From positions 702-64,701 of IMG/VR virus record IMGVR_UViG_3300031576_000039: 64,000 nucleotides of DNA; one strand, 5' to 3'. The translations under genes were made by a program, and so were the position numbers. The notes under the pieces were generated by a model. That model was not told the DNA's origin, made no database searches, and was given only the letters and a program-made list of their open reading frames with translations. This document shows positions 25,130-35,088 of this stretch, in pieces. This DNA is from a virus. Taxonomy: Duplodnaviria > Caudoviricetes. Numbering within the stretch: the stretch's first letter is position 1; each line of letters starts with the position of its first letter.

Positions 25130-25498
25130 CTAGGAGCGAGACAACGGCGTGACCGCCAGCTCGGATGGTGGAGGCTCCGCGCCGAGGCCGGTCAGATCGA
25201 CAACTCGACCTCCAGCCGCCGCGGTGGCGAGCATCTCGCGCCGCATACCACTTGAGATCCTTCCTCCGACCAGTACGATCCCGTCGCACCGCGCGGCCAT
25301 CGCCTCGTCGTCTCGCAGGCCCCTCTCGCGCTGCTGCGCATCCGCATCGGGGAGGACCTCCACGTACGGGATCCACGGGCAGCAGAACGCGCGGAGCGGT
25401 TCCTGATCGATGAGCCAGCGCAGCCACCGCCGGGCGCGCGCGACGTTGCCCGCGACGTCTCCGACGACCGGGTGGGCCACGTACCACACCTCCGTCAC
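25130..25498 (-). CDS. DUF4406-like protein (nucleoside 2-deoxyribosyltransferase fold)
   Basis: YVAHP..GD...N...A...CD.IVL.G.RISSGMRRE. Confidence 0.7.
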   Translation of the reverse strand: MTEVWYVAHPVVGDVAGNVARARRWLRWLIDQEPLRAFCCPWIPYVEVLPDADAQQRERGLRDDEAMAARCDGIVLVGGRISSGMRREMLATAAAGGRVVDLTGLGAEPPPSELAVTPLSRS

Positions 25499-26148
25499 AG
25501 CATCACCTCCAACCCACCCCCCTGCGCGCCGCCGAGACTGGACCAGCCACCGGAGCCGCGCCACAGTTCAACGAAGGCGCGGGGATCCTCCCCCCAGTAG
25601 ATCAGGACGGAGGGGAACGGGGCAGGCGCGTCGGCGCCTAGGAACCGGATCCTGCCCGGCCAGAAGTACACGGCGCCGGCGTGAGAGATGGCCTCGCGGA
25701 ACCACGCCGTGTCCGTGCGCGCGGCGACCAGCAGCACGAGCTGGTCGAGCCCGCGCATGCGCTGCCCCTCCACAGACGCCTTGCGCGCCCACGCGGCGAC
25801 GCCTCGCCCGTACGGAGGGTTGGCGAAGGCCAGCCCGTGCCCGGCCCACGGCTCGCGCAGCCCGTCCATCGCTCCGCACAGTTGCTCGCGCGGGAACCCG
25901 TCGAGGTCGGTGCCGTTGTGGTAGCCGACGGTCGGTCCGAACCACTCCTCGCACGCGAGCACGTGGCCGAGCTGGGAGGCGCAGGGGTCGAGACCCACCT
26001 GGCCGTCCGGCGCCAGCCTGCGGATCGGCCCGAGCACCTCGGGCGGCGTGCACCAGTCCATCCGCGCGCTCGACAGCAGGACGTCGGCGCGGAACGCGTT
26101 GTCGGCCTTCTCGCGGACACGATCCTCGACTGGGTGCTCCTCAGTCAC
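25495..26148 (-). CDS. dam: Phage DNA N6-adenine methyltransferase (T1/phage Dam family)
   Basis: DWCTP, LDPCAS, ANPPYG, ARTDTAWF motifs. Confidence 0.9.
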   Translation of the reverse strand: MTEEHPVEDRVREKADNAFRADVLLSSARMDWCTPPEVLGPIRRLAPDGQVGLDPCASQLGHVLACEEWFGPTVGYHNGTDLDGFPREQLCGAMDGLREPWAGHGLAFANPPYGRGVAAWARKASVEGQRMRGLDQLVLLVAARTDTAWFREAISHAGAVYFWPGRIRFLGADAPAPFPSVLIYWGEDPRAFVELWRGSGGWSSLGGAQGGGLEVML

Positions 26149-26888
26149 GGCAACCCAACGTGCTTGTGCAACTGCGTCGACAGCCGCCAGCGCGGGTGGC
26201 TCGCCACGAAGTCGACGCAGCGCTCGAGGTGCAGGCGGTAGGCGAGGTGGCCAGAGTCCCGCAGGTCCTCCCGCAGGTTGCCGGCGAGGTGGGAGACCTG
26301 GACGAGCCCGCGGTCGACCGGGTCCTGGGGCTGAACGAAGTAGTGCTCGAACGCCGACCCCTCCGCCATGCCCACCAGGTCCTCGTCTGTCCAGCCCGGG
26401 TCGTGGTGCTGCGCCGCGCCCGGCAGCACGACCTTCAGTTCGCTGCCGCGCTTGACCCGCCACGGTGCGCCGCGCTTGGGGGACACCGTGACCCATCTCA
26501 TCAGCTCGAGCGCCTCCGCGTCGACCGAACCGTTGGTCTCGACCGCGACCAGCCAACCCTCGTCGCGCAGGGCGGAGACCAGCCCGCGGTCGACCTGGAG
26601 CATCGGCTCGCCGCCGGTCAGCACGCACCAGCGCTCGCCCGCCGCGGGCTTGTCCTTCTGCCACGCCACGAGCATGCGCCGCAGGAGAACGTCCTGAGCG
26701 ACGCGCTCGCCATCCGCGAACGAGGAGTCGCACCAGCTCGCGCACGCCCCGGCACCGCGGTCGCGGTGCTCGGGGTGGCCGTCCCACAGGTTGCACCCGC
26801 TGAAGCGGACGAAGACGGCCTTGGTCCCCGCGCGGGCGCCCTCACCCTGGAGGGTGGGGAACACCTCTTTGACAACGTAGGACTTCAC
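26145..26888 (-). CDS. queE: 7-carboxy-7-deazaguanine synthase (radical SAM)
   Basis: EVFPTLQGEG...FVRFSGCNLW, LTGGEPMLQ, ETNG, VSPK, STQLHK. Confidence 0.92.
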   Translation of the reverse strand: MKSYVVKEVFPTLQGEGARAGTKAVFVRFSGCNLWDGHPEHRDRGAGACASWCDSSFADGERVAQDVLLRRMLVAWQKDKPAAGERWCVLTGGEPMLQVDRGLVSALRDEGWLVAVETNGSVDAEALELMRWVTVSPKRGAPWRVKRGSELKVVLPGAAQHHDPGWTDEDLVGMAEGSAFEHYFVQPQDPVDRGLVQVSHLAGNLREDLRDSGHLAYRLHLERCVDFVASHPRWRLSTQLHKHVGLP

Positions 26889-26889
26889 A

Positions 26890-27315
26890 TCACCTGCCTT
26901 GATCGTCCGCCCTGAACTCCGCGTAGCAGTTCGGCGTTTCGTGGCAGCGCACCGCGACCACCTGCACCTCAGGCTCGAGGGCTCGCCGAGCGACCTCGAA
27001 CACGTACGCCGCGAGGTTCTCGGCGCTAGGCGGCACCGGCAGCACGTAGAGCTTCTGCGCGTGCACGCTGAGCCAGTCGATGATCGGGTCCCCCTCCTGC
27101 GCGAGAAACCCGTGGTCCCAGTGCATGTCGAGCCAGCCCCCGACCCGCTCCTTGACCACGGAGAAGTCGATCACCCGTCCTACGTGATCGAGCTGTGAAG
27201 CACGGACGAACACCTCGAAGACGTATCGGTGGCCATGGACGTGAGCGCACTTCCCCTCGTGGTCTATCAACCGGTGCCCGGCGTCGATCTCGAGCCGGCG
27301 GGAGATGGTGGTCAC
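26890..27315 (-). CDS. queD: 6-carboxy-5,6,7,8-tetrahydropterin synthase
   Basis: DAGHRL...GKCAHVHGHRY, IDFS, DH, SAENLA, ETP. Confidence 0.92.
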   Translation of the reverse strand: MTTISRRLEIDAGHRLIDHEGKCAHVHGHRYVFEVFVRASQLDHVGRVIDFSVVKERVGGWLDMHWDHGFLAQEGDPIIDWLSVHAQKLYVLPVPPSAENLAAYVFEVARRALEPEVQVVAVRCHETPNCYAEFRADDQGR

Positions 27316-28880
27316 GGTGCCTCCTTCGGCTTGAAGTAGTGGGCGAGCAGGACCTCGATCGCCTCCTCCGGGTCCTCGGCGACCATCGCGAGGCGCGTGG
27401 CCGTGCGCGCCGTGACCTCCAGCTTCTTGAGCTTGGTCCCGTCGGCCTCCGGCGGATCGGGCACGACCACGTCGTCCGGCACCTGCTCCTCCGCCGGGCG
27501 CACGTCGGCGGCGGACAGGCGGTCGAACGAGAAGTCGACGGCGTCGAGGTACATCCGCAGCTCGCCCGCTGAGTAGGGCATGACCTCACGCATCTCGTCG
27601 ACCGACACCGACTCGTGGATGTCGCGCATCAGGTCGGCGAGGCGCACCTGGTCCGGCGACCCGCCCAGCTCGTTGAGGATGATCGTGAGCTGCTTGGCCT
27701 GCGCGTCGTCCATCTCGCCGACGTCCACCACCGGGATCTCCACCATCCCGATCAGCTGCGCCGCGCGCCAGCGGTGCTCCCCGTTGATGATCTGGTAGGT
27801 GCCGTCGGCGAGGGTCCGCACGACCGGGCGTTCGACGAACCCGAACCTGCGCAGTGAGGCGGCCAGCTTCGTGAAGTCGTCGTCCGACTGGACGTTGTAG
27901 TTCCACGGGTTGGGCTGGACCCGCGCGGCCGGGACCAGCTTCAACTTCTGATGGAGTCCCTGTGACCGCCAGACCACGCAACTACCAGAGCGGACCGCAG
28001 AGCCAGGCGGTGGGGGAAGTTGGTGGGAGATGACGGTGGCCATCAGGTTGCCCATGTACTGCCACTTCATGTCGAAGTCGAGCGCGCCGTCGAGGTGGCT
28101 GCGCAGCTTCCCGTATGCGACCTGGTGCTCGCGCTCGCACCACGCACGCCACGCCGTCCACTTGGGACTGTAGATCGACGCCTGCGGGACGGAGCCGCCG
28201 GAGAACAGGCTACCGCACCCGTACCGCCCAGCGTTGGTCCAGGTGGCAGAGTCGCAGCTCTCCGCCCTCGTGTGCCTGAGGATCTCCGGCGTGGTGCAGC
28301 CGAGGAGGTGCAGGCTCGGGTGGTCGCACTCGCGCAGTACGCGAGCGACGGCGAGGAGGAAGCTCTTTTCGTTGAGGCGCTCGAGCGTGCGACCCATCGT
28401 CAGCGACGACTCCCGCACCGCGACGCCCACGCGTCCCTTCTTGGCCAGCTCGCGCAGTCCTGCCTCGCCGTCCTGCCGGTGCCACACGTACATCACGCGG
28501 TTGGGCAGCTTCGCGAAGAACTCCTCCCGCAGCCTCCACACGAAGTCGGTGCCGTGGCTCTCCTGGACGTCGACCTCCACCACCTCGTGCTTCCAGCCCC
28601 AGCGCTGGACGTCTTCGACGTAGCGCTCAGTGAAGCGGAGGACGTCGTCCTCGGTCTGGAGAGTACCCGCCTCCGCGCCGTAGACGAGGGTGAACACGCC
28701 CGAGTCCATGATCCACTCGGCGTCATCTTCCGCCACCGCCTCCATGGTGCTGCTGAGGTCCAACCCCTTCGTGCGCTCGTTGGCGAGGTAGTGGTAGGAG
28801 CACAGCCGGAACGGGTAGTCCGCGAAGCGCAGGACCACGCCCATGTTGGCGCCCTCGGAGCCGGCCAAGAAGACCTTCAC
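27312..28880 (-). CDS. dpdA: DpdA(2)-like DNA-guanine transglycosylase fused in frame to a ParB/Srx domain
   Basis: IMDSGVFT, HLLG, SCDSATW (TGT-fold motifs); then PNPWNYN...GF...IINGEHRWRAA (ParB). Confidence 0.75.
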   Translation of the reverse strand: MKVFLAGSEGANMGVVLRFADYPFRLCSYHYLANERTKGLDLSSTMEAVAEDDAEWIMDSGVFTLVYGAEAGTLQTEDDVLRFTERYVEDVQRWGWKHEVVEVDVQESHGTDFVWRLREEFFAKLPNRVMYVWHRQDGEAGLRELAKKGRVGVAVRESSLTMGRTLERLNEKSFLLAVARVLRECDHPSLHLLGCTTPEILRHTRAESCDSATWTNAGRYGCGSLFSGGSVPQASIYSPKWTAWRAWCEREHQVAYGKLRSHLDGALDFDMKWQYMGNLMATVISHQLPPPPGSAVRSGSCVVWRSQGLHQKLKLVPAARVQPNPWNYNVQSDDDFTKLAASLRRFGFVERPVVRTLADGTYQIINGEHRWRAAQLIGMVEIPVVDVGEMDDAQAKQLTIILNELGGSPDQVRLADLMRDIHESVSVDEMREVMPYSAGELRMYLDAVDFSFDRLSAADVRPAEEQVPDDVVVPDPPEADGTKLKKLEVTARTATRLAMVAEDPEEAIEVLLAHYFKPKEAP

Positions 28881-29536
28881 GGCTGGTCCCACCTCGGGTA
28901 CAGCGCGAGCAGGCCCGCGGTCTCGAGGTCGCGTCGCATCAGCACGCAGTGGTGGCACCGGCGGCAGGGTACGTGCCCGCCCTCGTAGCAGTTCCACAGG
29001 CTGCCGAGGTCTACGCCAGCCTCCCTCAGGTTGAGGAGTAGCAGAGACTTCGGCAGGGCCCGGGCGCCGAGCGGCTGGGAGAACCGCACCGACACGCCCT
29101 TCTCCGAGCAGCGGGTGACGAGGTCGCCCATGCGCTCGTAGAACTCGGTGGTGCAGTCCCAGAAGCAGAAGGGATCGTCGTCCCGGTGGGTGGTCGTCTT
29201 GCTCCCCACCACCACCTCCTCCGCTCCGACCGCCTCCGCCAGGTTGGCCATGATGGTCCCGATCACCAGGTTGCGGATCGGCACGTAGGCGACCGGAACG
29301 CCGCCCGCCGCCAGGCCCATCTCGAGCGTGACCTGGCGATTGACGAGCCGCTCGAAGTGGGGGTAGCGGGCCGCGAACCACGACGCGAGGTACTGCGCGG
29401 CCTCCCGCTCCTGCCGCGCGTACGGCTGGCCGTAGTCGACGAAGGCGGCGGTGACCTGCGCACCTGCGTCGAGGGTGAGCTTGGTAGAGTAGGCACTGTC
29501 GTACCCACCCGACAGCTCGCAGACCACCTTCCTCAC
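28877..29536 (-). CDS. queC: QueC-like PP-loop ATPase, divergent
   Basis: LSGGYDS, DYGQ, YVPIRN, WNCY...CRRCHHC. Confidence 0.85.
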   Translation of the reverse strand: MRKVVCELSGGYDSAYSTKLTLDAGAQVTAAFVDYGQPYARQEREAAQYLASWFAARYPHFERLVNRQVTLEMGLAAGGVPVAYVPIRNLVIGTIMANLAEAVGAEEVVVGSKTTTHRDDDPFCFWDCTTEFYERMGDLVTRCSEKGVSVRFSQPLGARALPKSLLLLNLREAGVDLGSLWNCYEGGHVPCRRCHHCVLMRRDLETAGLLALYPRWDQP

Positions 29537-30405
29537 GGACGACCTCCGATCGCGCTGCGCAAGCTGGCGTGCTCCTTGTCCGTGCCCGACCACAGGAAGA
29601 CCTGGTAGCCGTCGCGCGTGCGGTACAGGTCGAAGCGCTGCGCGACCTCCTCTGGGATCGCGCTCAGCCTGAGGGTGAGCACCGGGCCGTCGCCGACGAC
29701 GTGCTCCGGGTCGAGCAGGGCGACGAGGAGCGCACGCCTCTCGTCGATCTTCTCCCGCAGCTTCTTCGCGTCGAAGAGATGGAGGACGCGCGCGAGGTCG
29801 GCGACGAGGGGGATGGCCGGCGTGTGCGGGGACTCCCTCCTCTGCTGGAACTGCTCCCTGTAGCGGGCGAGGTTGAGGTAACTGTAGGCCCCCCTCGAGT
29901 CGAGGAGGAGGTCCCACCCTCGGGGTGACACCACGACGATCCCCATCACCGGCAGAGCGCCCAGTTGCTTGCTCGTCACCGTGGTCCAGATCTCCGCCTC
30001 CTGGAGCGCCGGGTAGTAGGGAAACGCGCTCACCATGTCCACCATCCACGCCCCGACCTTCGGCGGGGGTGGCGTCGCGAACGAGGTCGCGGTGTCGTAG
30101 CCGACCCACGCAGCGTGGGTGGACTCAGGAGAGAACACGTCGTGCGCGCGGGCGAGCATCTCCAGACGCGCGGCGAACTCGAGGTCCGCACGCTCCACCC
30201 GCCACGAGCGGTTGCTGCTGGCGAACACCGACTCGTTCGCCAGCGTGCCGCTACCCGTGAGGAGCAGGACGTCGCTGTCGAGTGGGACCGAGAACCTCTC
30301 CCTGAACAGGTCCACCGCCTCGGTCAAGAGTTCGCGGTAGGTCGCACTGCGGTGGTGGAAGTTCCCGGGCTGTCCCGTGAGGGTCCTGGCGTTGGGACCG
30401 AACAC
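29533..30405 (-). CDS. PLP-dependent enzyme, aminotransferase class V-like, compact (290 aa)
   Basis: FGP, HHRS, LTGSGT, DMVSAF, SKQLG (PLP lysine), P.TP. Confidence 0.8.
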   Translation of the reverse strand: MFGPNARTLTGQPGNFHHRSATYRELLTEAVDLFRERFSVPLDSDVLLLTGSGTLANESVFASSNRSWRVERADLEFAARLEMLARAHDVFSPESTHAAWVGYDTATSFATPPPPKVGAWMVDMVSAFPYYPALQEAEIWTTVTSKQLGALPVMGIVVVSPRGWDLLLDSRGAYSYLNLARYREQFQQRRESPHTPAIPLVADLARVLHLFDAKKLREKIDERRALLVALLDPEHVVGDGPVLTLRLSAIPEEVAQRFDLYRTRDGYQVFLWSGTDKEHASLRSAIGGRP

Positions 30406-30406
30406 G

Positions 30407-30970
30407 TTACCCCACCCGCGTGAGACGCGAGAGGAACTCTGTCCTCACGCTCGAGTCCGACAGGAAGGCACCGCCCAGCGCCGTGGTGACCATCTCCGAG
30501 CGCTGCTTGCCGACGCCGCGCGCTGCCATGCACATGTGCTGCGCGCGAACCTCCACGCCCCACCCGATGGGGTTGAGGTGCTCCTGCAACGCCTCGCCGA
30601 TCTGGCTGGTCATCCGCTCCTGGATCTGGAGGCGGCGCGCGAAGCACTCGACCAGGCGGGCGAGCTTCGACAGGCCGACGACGCGCGCGCGGGGGATGTA
30701 CGCGAGGGACGCGACCCCGTGGAATACGAGGGTGTGGTGCTCGCAGAGGGAGAAGAAGTCGACCTCGCGCAGGACGACCATCGCGTTGTAGGTACCGCCG
30801 TCGAACTGCGCCGCGAGGATATCCTTGGGGTCCATCTCGTACCCGCCGCACAGCTCCGCCATTGAGCGTGCGACGCGGGCCGGCGTGTCGCGCAGGCCGT
30901 CGCGCTCCGGGTCCTCACCGACGCCCGCCAAGATCATGCGGACCCCCTCCGAGATCAGTGCCTCATCCAT
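30407..30970 (-). CDS. folE: GTP cyclohydrolase I
   Basis: TPARVA, SLCEHH, GLSKLAR, RLQIQER, HMCMAARG. Confidence 0.95.
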   Translation of the reverse strand: MDEALISEGVRMILAGVGEDPERDGLRDTPARVARSMAELCGGYEMDPKDILAAQFDGGTYNAMVVLREVDFFSLCEHHTLVFHGVASLAYIPRARVVGLSKLARLVECFARRLQIQERMTSQIGEALQEHLNPIGWGVEVRAQHMCMAARGVGKQRSEMVTTALGGAFLSDSSVRTEFLSRLTRVG

Positions 30971-32591
30971 GGACAAGCCGGCCTCCTTCCGCGCGCACGT
31001 GCACCGCCGTGCGCAGCCGGTCCTTGAGGTGCTGGGAGTGGGTGATCACGACGACGCACCTGGACTGTGCCAGGTCCTCTAGGACGGACGCAACCGCCGT
31101 GGCGCCCTGCTCGTCGAGCGCGTCGAGCACCTCGTCTAGCCACAGAGTGGACCCCTCCTGCGAGCCTCTCGCAGCCTGTGCGACGTCAGCGAGAGCGAGC
31201 ATCAGGGCGACGTCGATCCGGCGCCGCTCTCCGCCGCTAGCCCCGCGGTACCCGCGGCCGCCGCCCGCGCCGTCCACCTCGATCGAGATCGCCTCTGACA
31301 TCGCGCCCGACCGGCGCTCGGTGTACGGGCTCAGGCGGACCGAGAGCCCGCCGCCCGCGAGTCGATCCAGCCAGCCGTTGGCGGCGGCGGCGAGACCGTC
31401 CAGCGCCCGACCCAGGATGTGAGCGCGCACGCCGCGCATGCCCAGCACGCGCTCGCACGCCTCCAGCTTCGTTACCTCCGCGGAGAGCGACGCGACCTTC
31501 AGGGTCAACTCCACGACCTTCGCAGCCCGCGCGCCGAGGGCGTCCTGGGCCCCCCGAAGGTCGGTCTCCACCGTCATCCTCGCCTCTGCGGCCCCCCGCG
31601 CCCGGCCGAGGCCCATGTCCGCGGCGCGCGTCCTGGACTCCAGTTCCCGCAGCTCCTCCTCCGCCTCGTCTCTCTCGGCGCGGATCGCGGTGGACTGCTG
31701 GCAGACGTCTGTCAGGAGAGAGCGAGCGCGCGTGACGGCGTCGTTGAACCGATCCAGATCCACGACCTGCACCGGCTGCTCGCACGTCGGACACCGCCCG
31801 TCCGCGAGAGTCCGCGCCCGCTCCTCCGCGGATCGCAGCAGCCCACGTACCTCGCCCTCCTTCCGCGCCGCGTCGGCCCACCTGCGGGTCAGCTCCGCGA
31901 CCTGCCCACGGCAACCGGCGCCGAGGGCGCGGAGGTCCACCGTCCGGCGCTCGAGCAGCTGCTCGAGGTCGCCGGGATCCTCGAGAGCGTCCAGGCGAGC
32001 CTCGCACGCCGCGACCCTCCGACCCGCCTCCTCCTGGCGGGCGACCTCGACGGCCAGGTCGCGGTCGGCGGAGGCGTGCGCCACGGTGGCGGTGCGCAGG
32101 TCCAGCCGGCAAGCCTCGAGCGCGGCGTCGAAGCGGTCTAGCCCCAGCACCGACTCCAGCAGGCGCTTGCGCTCCGCGTCCGTAGCGAGAGTGAAGTGCG
32201 CGGCGTCGGCGGACGAGAACACGCACGACCGCCGCCACAGGTCCAGCGTGCCGACCTCGGCGTCGAGGGCGTCCTGCGCCTTGGTGGTGGACTCGTACGC
32301 GACCGCCTCCTCGCCGGCCCGGCACCACGACAGCTCCGACTTGCCGCTAGCTCGAGCGCGGTAGACGGCACGATCGGAGGTGAGGACTTGGACCTCGCAC
32401 CGGCCGCTCGAGGGCGTCGGGTCGGCTCCGCGGAGGGTCTTGCCCCACAGGCCCCACGCGACGGCCTCCAGGATGCTCGACTTGCCGGCGCCGTTGGGGC
32501 CCGTGACCAGCACGACCCCGCGCGCGGGGAGGTCCAGCCGCGTGCTCGCGTGCACCGTGAACCCCTGCATCTCGACGCGGCGGACGATCAA
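30963..32591 (-). CDS. SbcC/Rad50-like ATPase (T4 gp46-like)
   Basis: GPNGAGKS, CPTC zinc hook, SGGE signature, WLDE, ITH. Confidence 0.9.
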   Translation of the reverse strand: MIVRRVEMQGFTVHASTRLDLPARGVVLVTGPNGAGKSSILEAVAWGLWGKTLRGADPTPSSGRCEVQVLTSDRAVYRARASGKSELSWCRAGEEAVAYESTTKAQDALDAEVGTLDLWRRSCVFSSADAAHFTLATDAERKRLLESVLGLDRFDAALEACRLDLRTATVAHASADRDLAVEVARQEEAGRRVAACEARLDALEDPGDLEQLLERRTVDLRALGAGCRGQVAELTRRWADAARKEGEVRGLLRSAEERARTLADGRCPTCEQPVQVVDLDRFNDAVTRARSLLTDVCQQSTAIRAERDEAEEELRELESRTRAADMGLGRARGAAEARMTVETDLRGAQDALGARAAKVVELTLKVASLSAEVTKLEACERVLGMRGVRAHILGRALDGLAAAANGWLDRLAGGGLSVRLSPYTERRSGAMSEAISIEVDGAGGGRGYRGASGGERRRIDVALMLALADVAQAARGSQEGSTLWLDEVLDALDEQGATAVASVLEDLAQSRCVVVITHSQHLKDRLRTAVHVRAEGGRLVHG

Positions 32592-32598
32592 CGCCGCC

Positions 32599-32826
32599 TC
32601 ACTTGCCGTCACGCTCGAAGATCGCCTGCCGGCAGTAGACACAAGCATCGAGAAGCTCCTGGTATAGGTCGACGAGCGGATCGCGACCGTTGAACGCCTG
32701 GAGAGGCGTGCCGTACCGCAAGCGTCCGACGTTGTCCCTGGCCTCCATGTCTTCGATCACCAACGACCAGATCGGCATGGAACCGTTGGGCTGCGGTGGC
32801 CCCTGCTCCTCTACGAGATCGCTCAT
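32599..32826 (-). CDS. Small all-alpha NTP pyrophosphatase/MazG-like phage protein
   Basis: G..RYGT.L...NGRD.L.D.YQELLD..VY pattern. Confidence 0.55.
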   Translation of the reverse strand: MSDLVEEQGPPQPNGSMPIWSLVIEDMEARDNVGRLRYGTPLQAFNGRDPLVDLYQELLDACVYCRQAIFERDGK

Positions 32827-33965
32827 GTCAAGTACCCCCTCACCTGCTCGAGCACCGCCTGGCGGTCCACGCCGTCGGGCAGGTCCATCGCGGTGACGTA
32901 GTGGGCCAGCGCGTCCTCCAGGGTGCCGGCGTGGCGCGCGGCGTGTGCGGCGGTGGCGGCTGCCGCGCGCGCCTCGAACTCGTCGACCACGACCTCGCCG
33001 TCGGCCACGTCACCAGACGCGCGCCTGGCGGCGAGCCAAGCGAGGGCCTCCTCCATCTCCACCCGCGCAGCCTTGACGCGCACGAAGGACTCGTTCTCCT
33101 GGTCGCGCTGGGCCTCGGCGAGTTGGGCACTGACCTCCGGCATGGCACCGGACAGGAACCTCGGGCCCGGGACCTCCTCCCACGCCAGGCTGTCCTCGTC
33201 GGAGTCGTACACGGCGAGGGTCCCGTAGCCGGTGGACCCCGCGTCGCTGAAGCCCGTGGGGCACAGCGCGCCCACCTGCACCACCGCGACCTCGCCGTGC
33301 TGCCAGAGCCGGCGCCTGTGCCAGTTGCCGGCGAGCACGGCGGACGCCCCGCACCGCTGAGCCAGGTACCCCAGATCCGGCAGCTCTATCGCGTCGTGCG
33401 CCTTGCGCAAGAACGCGGGCGTGTCGGTGTCGACGATCCCGAGGTGCAGGGCGACGATCAGCGGGCCGGACGGGCGCTGGTCAACCGCCTCCGCGAGCGC
33501 GCCGGCCAGCCACCCGCGGGCGTCCCCGGGACGGAACGGGACGAATGCGACGACCGCGCCGCCGGGTAGCCGCCAGCCCGGTTCGTCGACCACGCTGATC
33601 CGCGGTCCGCCCTCGCGGTAGAAGCCGTCCAGCGGAGCGAACGCGTGGTCCCCGGGCTCGGAGCTGACCTGGTCGTGGTTGCCGGTCAGCAGCCACACCC
33701 GCTCTAGCGGATGGGCGACGAGCGCGTCGCGGGCGGCGCGCAGGACCTGCGGTGACGGGTCTGAGCGGTCGAACAGGTCGCCGAGCACCACGAGGTCGGA
33801 GCACCCGTCTGCGTACGCGGCAGCGCATGCGCGCTCCAGCGCCTCCACGACCAGCCGGCACCTGCCGTTGACTCCGACGCGGGCTGGTCCCCCGAACCGC
33901 GGAAAGTTGTGCACGTGCACGTCGGCGACGAAGCCGATCTTCCTCCTGGTGGTCTTCACGTCCAC
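32823..33965 (-). CDS. SbcD/Mre11-like metallophosphoesterase nuclease (T4 gp47-like)
   Basis: ADVH, GDLFD, GNHD, GNWH. Confidence 0.9.
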   Translation of the reverse strand: MDVKTTRRKIGFVADVHVHNFPRFGGPARVGVNGRCRLVVEALERACAAAYADGCSDLVVLGDLFDRSDPSPQVLRAARDALVAHPLERVWLLTGNHDQVSSEPGDHAFAPLDGFYREGGPRISVVDEPGWRLPGGAVVAFVPFRPGDARGWLAGALAEAVDQRPSGPLIVALHLGIVDTDTPAFLRKAHDAIELPDLGYLAQRCGASAVLAGNWHRRRLWQHGEVAVVQVGALCPTGFSDAGSTGYGTLAVYDSDEDSLAWEEVPGPRFLSGAMPEVSAQLAEAQRDQENESFVRVKAARVEMEEALAWLAARRASGDVADGEVVVDEFEARAAAATAAHAARHAGTLEDALAHYVTAMDLPDGVDRQAVLEQVRGYLT

Positions 33966-34882
33966 CCCAGCTTCGCCCGGGCCTCCTCGAGCAGGGCAGC
34001 GGACATCCGCGCGGCCTCCGGCACGAGGCCGCGGTCCTTAGCGTGGGCCAGGGTGGCCCAGTCGTCGTCCCACCCCGCGGCGTAGTCGAGGCGGACTTGC
34101 GCCTTGCGCCACGGTGGGGCGAGGCGGTTCTTGGTCGCGAGGAAGGTGACCACCTTCCCGGTGTGCTCGCCCTCATCCTTCACCGCCTTGCCACCGAACA
34201 GCTGAAGGCGGATCGACGCGTGGAACTTCACGGCGTGCCCGCCCGGGGTCGTGTACTTGTCACCGAACATCACGCCGATCTTCTCTCGCACCTGGTTGAC
34301 GAACAGGAGGCACGCCCGCTTCTCGACCGCCAGGGGGGAGAGCACCTTACAGATCTTGCCGAGCGCGCGGGCGCGCTCGCCGATGCGGTCGTCGCCGGAC
34401 AGCCCGTCGTCGACCTCGCGCTGCGTCGGGGTTGCGGCGATCGAGTCCCACACCACGGCGTTGGGACCGACGCTAGCCGGCACAGCGCCGAGGGCGGCCT
34501 CGATCTGCTGTCCCGCCTGCTCGATCGACCCGGGCTGCAAGAGCACCAGCTGCTCGACGTCGCAGCCGAACAGGCGCGCGCGGGCGTTGTCGATCCCGTT
34601 CTCCGTCTCCGCCCAGATCGCGATCCCGCCCTCGCGCTGCGCGCCCGCCGCGACCGTGTAGGCATAGGTCGTCTTCCCGACGCCCTCGTCCGAATACACC
34701 TCGACCAAGCGGCCGACCGGCATCCCACCCACCCCGAAGACGTAGTGGTCCAGCACGGCAACGCCCGTGGGGATCACCTCGCGCACCTCGCACGCCGCGC
34801 CGTCGGACAACCGCAGCGCGGACTCGTCCCCGAACTTCGCGCGCACCGCCTTGATGACGCGGTCGACGTGGTCACGGCTCAC
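33956..34882 (-). CDS. recA: RecA/UvsX recombinase
   Basis: GMPVGRLVE...GVGKTT, VWDSIAA, NQVREKIGVMFG, TPGG.A.KFHASIRL. Confidence 0.93.
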   Translation of the reverse strand: MSRDHVDRVIKAVRAKFGDESALRLSDGAACEVREVIPTGVAVLDHYVFGVGGMPVGRLVEVYSDEGVGKTTYAYTVAAGAQREGGIAIWAETENGIDNARARLFGCDVEQLVLLQPGSIEQAGQQIEAALGAVPASVGPNAVVWDSIAATPTQREVDDGLSGDDRIGERARALGKICKVLSPLAVEKRACLLFVNQVREKIGVMFGDKYTTPGGHAVKFHASIRLQLFGGKAVKDEGEHTGKVVTFLATKNRLAPPWRKAQVRLDYAAGWDDDWATLAHAKDRGLVPEAARMSAALLEEARAKLGWT

Positions 34883-35088
34883 GCTACCGCCTCCAACTCC
34901 GCGAGTAACTCGCGGAGGTCCGCGAGCACGCTCTCCATGGCCTCGACCTCTGCGCTGTGGACCACGGAGCAGATGCCGGGAGGTGCACCTCGCTCGCGCG
35001 TCTGCGCCAGCGGCCGCTCGAAGTCGCCCCCGTCGGCGGCGGCATCGAGGCGCCGGCAGGGTCACTGTGAAATGCGAGCATCGTCATT

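Follow-up and report, generated by a model that had tools for sequence, protein, structure and literature searches.

Closest described systems

The base 7-carboxy-7-deazaguanine (CDG) is made by FolE, QueD and QueE, with FolE carrying out the first step to the 7-deazaguanine base. In the DpdA/preQ0 clusters of the Saguaro type (Hutinet 2019; Cui 2023) these three proteins are encoded in one block together with a QueC-family, a DpdA-like and a ParB-like protein, and the order in Mycobacterium phage Saguaro itself is ParB-DpdA-QueC-QueD-QueE-FolE, with a QueC of canonical motifs and no PLP gene. The main text of Cui 2023 never uses the terms "PLP", "transaminase" or "ParB", and that of Hutinet 2019 never uses "PLP" or "ParB", as far as these two texts were available; we found no published description of a PLP enzyme paired with QueC.

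The pairing considered here can be likened to Gat-QueC of phages 9g, MiCath and Megan, where QueC likewise has a physically linked partner that handles nitrogen within a phage dpdA cluster, although the partner there is a fused glutaminase and here a separate PLP protein of transaminase fold. Cap9 (type IV CBASS) and QatC are described in the accessible text of PMC13329287 and bioRxiv 2025.04.06.647259 as ligases of the QueC family that couple CDG, once activated by ATP, to a primary amine, and they belong to defence operons with a target protein (CD-NTase or QatB) that has an N-terminal glycine. In the capsule amidation module of Campylobacter jejuni, as set out in the available part of PMC11800397, the PLP enzymes Cj1437/Cj1436 yield an amine phosphate (serinol phosphate or ethanolamine phosphate) that Cj1438C couples to a carboxylate with ATP, and the HAD protein Cj1435 removes the phosphate.

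The locus described here lies in a window of 64,000 nucleotides from a virus of the Caudoviricetes. It holds the functions of the Saguaro-type clusters in one block but differs from them in that a PLP gene adjoins queC, and the product of this queC falls in a clade of its own, in which canonical motifs are remodelled. We tentatively read the cluster, with a confidence falling slightly short of even, as a phage 7-deazaguanine DNA-modification pathway that carries a two-gene tailoring module, in which the PLP enzyme would make an amine, QueC would join it to CDG and DpdA would insert the resulting base.

Gene content of the cluster

The six genes, folE, the 290-aa ORF, queC, a dpdA-ParB fusion, queD and queE, are all on the minus strand, and their coordinates bear out the earlier description of a single chain with GTGA overlaps or 1-nt gaps, every junction being a 4-nt overlap or a 1-nt gap. 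The gene folE (30407-30976), encoding a GTP cyclohydrolase I of 189 aa, matches Pfam GTP_cyclohydroI at 1.4e-64 and TIGR00063 with 208.9 bits, above the cut-off of 181.6. The 290-aa ORF (29533-30405) starts 1 nt past the folE stop and ends in a TGA that overlaps the GTG start of queC (28877-29536; 219 aa) as GTGA, and the start of the 522-aa dpdA-ParB ORF (27312-28880) overlaps the end of queC in the same way. Next come queD (26890-27315), a 6-carboxytetrahydropterin synthase of 141 aa (Pfam PTPS 4.4e-31; phrog_2389 6.4e-42), and, after a gap of 1 nt, queE (26145-26888), a 7-carboxy-7-deazaguanine synthase of the Cx14CxxC type with 247 aa (phrog_2076 4.2e-23; TIGR04508 2.4e-53, with 181 bits under the cut-off of 240). 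By Pfam, PHROG and NCBIfam assignments, the base-synthesis genes folE, queD and queE are all in the same block as the dpdA-like gene.

The 522-aa ORF combines a DpdA-like transglycosylase over approximately residues 1-230, where phrog_887 (queuine tRNA-ribosyltransferase) matches at 5.4e-14, with a ParB_N domain at residues 312-403 (about 27672-27947; Pfam ParB_N 3e-14, with matches to ParB PHROGs as well). A Pfam TGT match was not obtained for this ORF, and its nearest isolates are the phages phiFN37 and Roos, with 28% identity to the annotated phiFN37 enzyme. In agreement with the first-pass annotation, which had recognised no QueF, none reaches the cut-off in the 64.7-kb record, which is estimated to be 66% complete and leaves the absence of tailoring genes unproven; the sole QueF match there has 21.2 bits against a cut-off of 27.3 and falls inside folE. 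Neither a HAD phosphatase nor an ATP-grasp gene is present in the record of this virus.

The 290-aa protein has the predicted fold of a class-V transaminase

The motifs LTGSGT, DMVSAF and SKQLG, on which the protein had earlier been assigned to the class-V PLP enzymes, are all present in the 290-aa product, and that assignment stands even though Pfam does not see it: at E ≤ 10 the only Pfam match is a spurious one to HWE_HK (0.078), Aminotran_5 is absent, and the PHROG search was also without a match. The best family member for Aminotran_5 (P0102) reaches 16 bits against a gathering threshold of 21.5. The NCBIfam model for pyridoxamine-pyruvate transaminase gives 2.6e-7, far below that model's cut-off. 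Against PDB sequences, a profile of the 290-aa family matches only chains of the class-V type, among them 3f0h (1.7e-20) and the SerC 3ffr (3.8e-16). The AF2 model has a pLDDT of 95.1, and Foldseek places it with class-V transaminases at 1e-16 to 1e-13 (1iug at 1.2e-16) with query-normalised TM scores of 0.74-0.80, the value being 0.80 for both 3f0h and 7e7g.

The glycines and serine of GSG 51-53, Asp123 and Lys146 are invariant in 32/32 family sequences, and in the family profile K146 and D123 are aligned to the segments SQK and CDxVSAF of 3f0h, which we take to hold its cofactor residues. The protein is thus predicted, from sequence profiles and a structure model, to have the class-V aminotransferase fold with its PLP residues kept. 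The fold and the cofactor Lys and Asp are common to the class-V (subgroup IV) aminotransferases such as SerC, 2-aminoethylphosphonate transaminase and alanine-glyoxylate aminotransferase, and the N-terminal His-Arg pair that in E. coli SerC contacts the distal anionic group of a substrate analogue is also retained. Unlike these enzymes, which have 350-400 aa, the present protein has only about 290 aa, so that the target-normalised TM is only 0.56-0.69; it stays under the Aminotran_5 threshold, and its family is without an invariant C-terminal Arg. Both decarboxylation and transamination had been suggested as the source of the amine; since all close structural relatives are transaminases, decarboxylation is the less likely of the two and transamination the part of the suggestion that is retained. 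Among the closest solved relatives are 2-aminoethylphosphonate transaminases, which turn an aldehyde into a primary amine.

A divergent QueC clade

The window QueC shows the FWDC motif and the preceding KTTTHRDDDP loop reported earlier, and its description as an altered QueC holds. The protein passes the Pfam QueC threshold of 22 with 84.6 bits (9e-24) and reaches only 73.6 bits against the cut-off of 150.3 of the QueC equivalog TIGR00364. Its best identity among 50,697 phage records is 31.6%, compared with 49-50% to the QueCs of two other PLP loci (L002 and L003), and the PADLOC QueC model is matched by 15/15 clade members. The canonical SGGxDS and VPxRN are present as SGGYDS and VPIRN, and all clade members share S8, G9, G10, D12, S13, P85, R87 and N88. 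The YxQxHxxE motif, in the form given for cluster 1 in the available text of PMC13329287, is replaced by YGQPYARQE, with Tyr in place of His and one extra residue. In the clade this 1-residue insertion turns the motif into xGQxYxxQE, the His being lost in 16/16 members and the first Tyr absent in 5/16. YPDC is replaced by FWDC in the window and by [FWY]xD[CS] in the clade, in both cases with 5 extra residues ahead of it; the aromatic residue and the Asp are kept. The zinc cysteines C182, C190, C193 and C196 are invariant, with a first spacer of 7 residues compared with 8 in the canonical C(x)8CxxCxxC. According to the same accessible text (PMC13329287), the E. coli QueC mutant Y35A is dead and Y131F keeps partial activity.

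Whether these QueCs form their own clade had also been asked, and the tree favours this. It is a quick tree whose references are limited to four QueCs, those of E. coli and Saguaro and two Gat-QueC sequences; the 16 PLP-adjacent QueCs and 22 database proteins group apart from the references with an SH-aLRT of 94, just under the tool's mark of 95, and the Gat-QueC sequences fall among the canonical QueCs and not in the PLP-adjacent clade. On sequence, then, the adjacent QueCs appear to be a distinct clade with derived indels in two canonical motifs.

In the available text of bioRxiv 2025.04.06.647259 the deazaguanine is held in Cap9 by the aromatic residue of YxDC, by its Asp and by the Arg of RN, and the counterparts of these residues (the aromatic residue two before D126, D126 and R87) are invariant in the clade. 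The Cap9 variants Y/FxQ(x)5E and C-x7-C at the first zinc spacer, as given in the accessible part of PMC13329287, are matched in the window by Y-G-Q-PYARQ-E and C-YEGGHVP-C, a spacing that is a resemblance and no proof of function. The QueC model (pLDDT 92.5) has Cap9 9nto_B and the QueC structures 2pg3/3bl5 as its top folds; the lead of Cap9 (4.5e-11) over canonical QueC (3.5e-10 and 3.8e-9) is so slight that the fold search does not discriminate, and by phmmer the sequence is no closer to Cap9 (7e-4) than to QueC (6.1e-5). The neighbours of the window QueC are FolE, the PLP enzyme, DpdA-ParB, QueD and QueE, a DNA-modification cluster and not a defence operon. No partner protein with an N-terminal glycine is found here, and the proposed acceptor is a small molecule.

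Genomic contexts of the PLP family

The pairing of PLP enzyme and QueC recurs in other uncultured phages. The family of small proteins of about 290 aa was found at 84 non-redundant loci, 18 in que/dpdA clusters, 44 in an ATP-grasp context and 22 elsewhere, several of these last being surface-glycan loci with HAD and ATP-grasp genes. Within the 18 que-context loci, whose G+C spans 27-70%, QueC is present in 17 and directly adjacent to the PLP gene in 15, and it is the only QueC in the PLP/que loci. One of them (L004) combines the Saguaro order with a PLP gene and a clade QueC. When viral contigs were scanned in reverse, starting from the motif of the QueC clade, 10 QueC loci came up, one of them new (L133), with an adjacent PLP gene in 10/10. 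The first-pass annotation had asked whether PLP homologues are consistently adjacent to queC/dpdA; this holds for the clade QueCs whose context could be viewed, but only 18 of the 84 family loci are linked to que genes at all, and DpdA is found in 9/18 of these, the fused window gene counted. PLP genes from que loci do not form a single clade in the family tree, where the starred branches require a minimum of 4 switches of context; the enzyme is, as judged by sequence, a portable part and not one specialised for deazaguanine.

Of the 44 loci in the ATP-grasp context, 42 have the ATP-grasp gene next to the PLP gene and 32 include a HAD gene; a natural PLP-HAD fusion exists as well. These contexts would by analogy match the Campylobacter capsule module, with the HAD phosphatase completing the set. 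The que loci would share with that module the logic of a PLP-made amine phosphate and an ATP-dependent ligase, in an analogy only: the ligase here is a PP-loop QueC and not an ATP-grasp protein, and the analogy is incomplete because 0/18 que-context loci, and likewise the record itself, have a HAD phosphatase or ATP-grasp gene.

Proposed pathway and alternatives

In the pathway we propose, CDG is supplied by the established route through FolE, QueD and QueE. The shortened transaminase would convert a small carbonyl compound, probably bearing a phosphate or other anionic group, to a primary amine. The QueC-family enzyme would adenylate the C7 carboxylate of CDG and capture this amine instead of, or before, ammonia, giving an N-substituted 7-carboxamido-7-deazaguanine. 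The DpdA-ParB fusion would then put this base in the place of guanine in phage DNA, or else CDG may be inserted first and the ligation occur on DNA. This reading builds on what the sequences and models show: the chained genes, the folds with their conserved catalytic residues, a pairing that recurs, and a QueC clade set apart from the canonical enzymes. The fuller statement, that the clade QueC is a small-molecule amide ligase joining CDG to an amine from a dedicated miniature class-V transaminase, with the product placed in DNA and the same transaminase shared with glycan modules, seems to us possible but somewhat more doubtful. The earlier interpretation is partly supported: ligation of an amine by the altered QueC has a precedent in the accessible accounts of Cap9 and QatC, and the usual non-que neighbour of the PLP family would by analogy also be an ATP-dependent carboxylate-amine ligase, but dPreQ0 or dADG may yet turn out to be the product, and DpdA would need to accept a bulkier base.

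That the QueC is a divergent but ordinary synthase of preQ0 (or ADG), with the PLP enzyme as a helper only, we consider less likely. The enzyme may still use ammonia in this way because the clade keeps SGGxDS, VPxRN, the aromatic-x-Asp in the YPDC position and the four zinc cysteines, and because Y131F of E. coli is partly active (available text of PMC13329287); moreover, it is the sole QueC in its loci, and its company of FolE, QueD, QueE and DpdA is the very one seen in Saguaro, a preQ0 phage. The PLP enzyme would on this account raise the local supply of a nitrogen donor, as is thought for the Gat-QueC glutaminase (amidotransferase-fused phage QueCs exist in MiCath and Megan), or adjust host metabolism. 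Transaminases, however, move an amino group to a carbonyl and release no ammonia, as is established enzymology; the clade has uniformly lost the His of YxQxHxxE, and in 5/16 the Tyr at which an Ala substitution inactivates the E. coli enzyme (same source); and the pairing of the family elsewhere with ATP-grasp ligases and HAD phosphatases points towards an amine made to order and not ammonia.

A direct action of the PLP enzyme on the C7 substituent, by which 7-formyl and 7-aminomethyl groups would be interconverted in a QueF-independent route to or from preQ1, seems improbable to us, as does action on an amino-acid adduct once the base is in DNA. The aldehyde chemistry of the 2-aminoethylphosphonate transaminases, the lack of a QueF at cut-off in the 64.7-kb record and the PLP-dependent steps on DNA-bound adducts known, from the part of the literature available, in thymidine hypermodification would fit such a role, but the conserved gene set has no reductase for a 7-formyl intermediate, the constant partner is the ligase-type QueC and not DpdA (9/18 loci), and the same family occurs in glycan loci without any deazaguanine genes. 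There is similarly little to recommend the view that the PLP gene is a passenger, for instance from a glycan or metabolite pathway, placed beside queC by an accident of phage gene order: 66/84 non-redundant family loci are outside que clusters and the context has changed several times on the tree, yet the adjacency is seen in 15/18 que-context loci across the 27-70% G+C range and in every reverse-scan locus, the PLP stop overlaps the queC start in the window, a single QueC clade is involved in the link, and no other glycan-type partner gene is present in these loci.

Should the amine-ligation pathway prove correct, the DNA of these phages would contain a previously undescribed base, an N-substituted 7-carboxamido-7-deazaguanine, with a side chain that is possibly hydroxyalkyl or phospho(no)alkyl. 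The transaminase would then be a common amine-making part of wider modules that make an amine and ligate it to a carboxylate, glycans included.

Gene Chain in the Window

The viral record, which is 64.7 kb long with about 70% G+C and an estimated completeness of 66%, carries six genes closely packed head to tail on the minus strand. The chain opens with folE (30407-30976, minus; Pfam 1.4e-64), and the 290-aa ORF of the PLP enzyme (29533-30405, minus) starts one base past the folE stop. The queC gene (28877-29536, minus; Pfam 9e-24) begins at a GTG inside the GTGA that ends the PLP gene, a further GTGA overlap joins it to a 522-aa ORF (27312-28880, minus), and queD (26890-27315, minus; Pfam 4.4e-31) and queE (26145-26888, minus; TIGR04508 2.4e-53) complete the chain. 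Family searches bear out five of the six genes, and the chain read in the first-pass annotation, along with the motifs quoted there, was found in full in the window.

The first 230 residues of the 522-aa ORF are of the type of DpdA, the transglycosylase that swaps guanine in DNA for a deazaguanine (5.4e-14 to the PHROG of phage queuine tRNA-ribosyltransferase), and residues 312-403 match ParB_N (Pfam 3e-14). DpdA-like and ParB proteins are encoded by separate, adjoining genes in loci L002-L005 and L007 of our collection, in Mycobacterium phage Saguaro and in phiFN37, whereas the window has both in a single ORF. Bacterial DpdA is described as requiring the ParB-like ATPase DpdB for preQ0 insertion (PMC10164549). 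The ORF looks like a natural fusion of the DpdA-DpdB type, unless an assembly frameshift merged two genes.

The 290-Residue PLP Protein

The 290-aa protein is recognized by neither Pfam nor PHROG, and its sole match in NCBIfam, weak and local, is to the pyridoxamine-pyruvate transaminase model (2.6e-7; 29.8 bits, where the cut-off is 600). Relatives of equal length were gathered by a word-indexed search (148 proteins at E ≤ 1e-3), and an exhaustive search of 1.84 billion representatives returned 263 representatives of the family at E ≤ 1e-3, with 84 at ≤ 1e-30. Invariant in a 32-member alignment are the N-terminal H18-R19, G51-S52-G53, D123, S126, F128-P129 and K146. The profile built from this alignment, when run against solved structures, matches class-V aminotransferases, with 3f0h as the best (1.7e-20), the SerC-type protein 3ffr (3.8e-16), 1iug (2.1e-15) and the aminoethylphosphonate transaminase fusion 6pd1 (5.9e-13). 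The AlphaFold model (pLDDT 95.1, pTM 0.92) superposes on the same class-V group with E of 1e-16 to 1e-13 and TM of 0.74-0.80 by query, and the ESM Atlas gives the same fold neighbours, its leading entries including aminoethylphosphonate transaminases and transaminase/nucleotidyltransferase fusions. All three comparisons agree with the class-V PLP call made earlier from the sequence, and the protein is a shortened class-V aminotransferase of about 290 aa, compared with 350-400 aa, that lies under the Pfam threshold.

In the alignment, the invariant H18-R19 falls on the His-Arg of 3ffr, the SerC-type chain, and in E. coli SerC the pair His41-Arg42 is described as touching the acidic group at the distal end of a substrate analogue (PMC6797613); this correspondence hints that the far end of the family's substrate may bear a phosphate or carboxylate. 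A Rosetta-stone search for a PLP-QueC fusion found none, and the two longer members it did reveal are natural fusions to a HAD phosphatase (protein P0150) and to a SAM methyltransferase (protein P0166). PLP ORFs of about 475-490 aa also occur at L090:8001-9425 and L116:1522-2988.

The Divergent QueC

The window QueC shares 49-50% identity with the QueCs of loci L002 and L003 and at most 31.6% with any QueC in 50,697 isolate phage records, and it scores 73.6 bits against the NCBIfam QueC equivalog, for which 150.3 are needed. The canonical signature is given as SGGxDS, YxQxHxxE, L75, VPxRN, YPDC, K165 and C(x)8CxxCxxC (PMC13329287, 2026), and in the E. coli enzyme Y35A, R99A and Y131A are reported as dead and Y131F as partly active (PMC13329287). 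When 16 PLP-adjacent QueCs were aligned with those of E. coli and Saguaro and two Gat-QueCs, SGGxDS, VPxRN and the four cysteines were found to be retained. The second motif reads xGQxYxxQE, one residue longer and with Tyr in place of His (the first Tyr is absent in 5 of 16), the stretch around L75 is missing from this alignment, and a five-residue insertion, GSKTxxxRxxDP[YF][SC], is followed by [FWY]xD[CS] in place of YPDC.

A quick tree of 49 rows, with these four references included and two short rows left out, joins the 16 PLP-adjacent QueCs and 22 database proteins sharing the insertions into one group, split from the four references with an SH-aLRT of 94, just below the 95 mark. The check proposed earlier, whether such QueCs form a clade of their own, comes out positive to this extent. 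A clade profile returned only 30 proteins at E ≤ 1e-3 in a search confined to short-word sharers, and a gap follows roughly the 24th of them. A reverse scan that took the motif of the clade through 2.9 million viral contigs yielded 10 QueC loci, nine of them already known from the PLP side; in the tenth, the new locus L133, a PLP gene again lies immediately upstream of QueC. The link between the PLP enzyme and this QueC is tight as seen from the QueC side.

The cluster of Saguaro serves for comparison. This phage has the order ParB-DpdA-QueC-QueD-QueE-FolE, with canonical QueC motifs and without a PLP gene, whereas L004 has ParB-DpdA-PLP-QueC-QueD-QueE-FolE with a clade QueC. The PLP gene and the altered QueC are thus a pair added to a known architecture.

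Genomic Contexts of the PLP Family

To characterize the family as a whole, we gathered 26 viral, 14 genome and 80 metagenome loci (the best 80 of 115), typed neighbouring genes with HMMs built from the first locus set, and collapsed the PLP proteins at 90% identity, which reduced 121 loci to 84 groups. Que/dpd genes accompany 18 of the 84: QueC is present in 17 and directly adjacent in 15 (the contig of L026 ends 111 bases past the PLP gene), folE, queD and queE occur in 11 each, and DpdA in 9 with the fused window gene counted. These at least 18 non-redundant que-context loci span 27-70% G+C. The largest share, 44 groups, lies beside an ATP-grasp ligase gene (adjacent in 42), with a HAD-type phosphatase in 32 and a PIG-L deacetylase in 17, as well as sugar-nucleotide transferases, a methyltransferase and unknowns. 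The other 22 groups have no match to the neighbour models; several are surface-glycopolymer loci by Pfam, with a HAD gene directly upstream in seven, an L-amino-acid-ligase-type ATP-grasp in five, and a sugar nucleotidyltransferase or TagF-like transferase in others. Searching PDB sequences with the ATP-grasp and HAD-like neighbours yielded no useful match, and tblastn with the window PLP protein and an ATP-grasp-context member found no match in the 50,697 phage records.

A quick tree of 82 near-full-length PLP representatives, from which two partial ones were left out, requires at least four context changes to account for the que-linked members, and in it the window protein belongs to a small group of que-linked members surrounded by ATP-grasp-linked ones. 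Since the family occurs in que, ATP-grasp and glycopolymer contexts and is fused to HAD and methyltransferase domains, it is not specific to deazaguanine. The check proposed earlier, whether PLP homologues lie consistently beside queC/dpdA, comes out negative from the PLP side (18 of 84 groups) and positive from the QueC side, where all 10 reverse-scan loci carry the pair.

Outside the que clusters, a conserved module recurs in L006, L008-L011, L015, L019, L021 and 36 metagenome loci (e.g., L009:3417-11170). It comprises one or two RimK-like ATP-grasp ligases, the PLP enzyme, a HAD-type phosphatase, a PIG-L deacetylase, a methyltransferase, two nucleotide-diphospho-sugar transferases, an MptE-like protein and three families without a Pfam or PHROG match. 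This undescribed module probably decorates a glycan with an amide.

Proposed Role of the PLP-QueC Pair

The best-supported reading, which we hold tentatively and at slightly under an even chance, is that the PLP enzyme would make an amine, that the QueC-type enzyme would ligate this amine to 7-carboxy-7-deazaguanine (CDG) to give an N-substituted 7-carboxamido-7-deazaguanine, and that the DpdA-ParB protein of the window would place this base into DNA. It combines two precedents. Cap9 of type IV CBASS and QatC are QueC-family proteins reported to join ATP-activated CDG to the N-terminal primary amine of a partner protein, and Cap9 is described as gripping the deazaguanine through the aromatic and Asp of YxDC and the Arg of RN (bioRxiv 2025.04.06.647259; PMC13329287). 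The clade counterparts of these contacts (R87, D126 and the aromatic two residues before D126) are all invariant, and the window QueC has the Y-x-Q-(x)5-E spacing and 7-residue zinc spacer of Cap9 as given in PMC13329287. Its top fold match is Cap9 (4.5e-11), with canonical QueC marginally behind (3.5e-10). In the Campylobacter jejuni capsule, PLP enzymes are described as producing serinol phosphate or ethanolamine phosphate, which an ATP-dependent amidoligase couples to the glucuronate carboxylate, and a HAD phosphatase as stripping off the phosphate (PMC11800397); this gene set is the one found around the PLP family outside the que clusters.

Several observations weaken the amine-ligation reading. 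A HAD or ATP-grasp gene is found in none of the 18 que-context loci nor in the window's record, which counts against it, as do the movement of the PLP gene between contexts, the larger base that DpdA would need to take, and the few references in the QueC tree. The clade QueC may simply make preQ0 or ADG, and it keeps most of the catalytic residues. The predicted complex of the PLP enzyme and QueC (score 0.00, mark 0.32) weighs neither for nor against a pairing. We rank low a role for the PLP enzyme as an ammonia source, since its near relatives are all transaminases, and likewise a route through 7-formyl-deazaguanine to preQ1, since no reductase is conserved. A phosphonate route, with PEP mutase and decarboxylase feeding an aminoethylphosphonate transaminase, was also considered; there is no sign of such enzymes, as the 380-aa and 427-aa unknown neighbours in non-que contexts have no Pfam match.

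We found no paper tying such a PLP enzyme to 7-deazaguanine DNA modification, a point on which supplementary neighbourhood tables may bear. The main text of the QueC-family survey (PMC13329287) contains no occurrence of "aminotransferase", "PLP" or "DpdA", the one 7-deazaguanine/phage/DpdA paper found with the word "aminotransferase" uses it for archaeosine-forming amidotransferases, and the carboxymethylcytosine paper (PMC12783734) has no bearing on the pairing. We rate the case as a DNA-modification system of a known kind whose tailoring pair is undescribed. Every new 7-deazaguanine derivative of DNA has so far brought a new enzyme and a new resistance to restriction enzymes. Eight such derivatives are listed by Cui (2023). 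The conserved, compact pair marks uncultured phages whose base is unpredictable from the known tailoring enzymes. If the amide-ligase reading is true, it would mean a new natural DNA base, a QueC made into an amine ligase in viruses as it has been in anti-viral defence (Cap9, QatC), and a function for about 260 representative proteins unrecognized by Pfam; if it is wrong, the clade keeps its value as an outlier for working out which QueC residues nitrile formation requires.

Additional Genes at Que-Linked Loci

Two genes lie directly 3' of queE, at about 25130-26150 (minus) of the window: one for an N6-adenine methyltransferase of the Dam type (Pfam Dam 3.7e-11, phrog_111 2e-28) and one for a DUF7768 protein matching a nucleoside 2-deoxyribosyltransferase PHROG (8.9e-8). 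Within the same block, they may give the phage a further DNA modification or a step in nucleoside handling. Annotation by eye and clustering places three ORFs 5' of folE (30963-35065, minus): a 561-aa SbcC-like ATPase, which the window shares with L002/L003 and L012/L025, an SbcD-like nuclease-sized ORF, and one that is RecA-like.

Three low-G+C que-context loci have a phosphoribosyltransferase-like gene adjoining folE (L012/L025:4775-5260 and L027:406-813; phrog_8995, 4.6e-16), which may hint at a nucleotide-level step in these phages. A second, far more divergent QueC-like type is present at L013:7279-9867, in L014 and at L018:15399-16088 (phrog_1550, 1.3e-14). The clade insertion is missing from it, and the quick tree groups it with neither the clade nor the references. 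It adjoins the PLP gene in L013/L014 and is 6 kb from it in L018. It has DpdA on one side and the PLP gene on the other, and next come a 170-aa unknown and a dCMP-deaminase-like gene.
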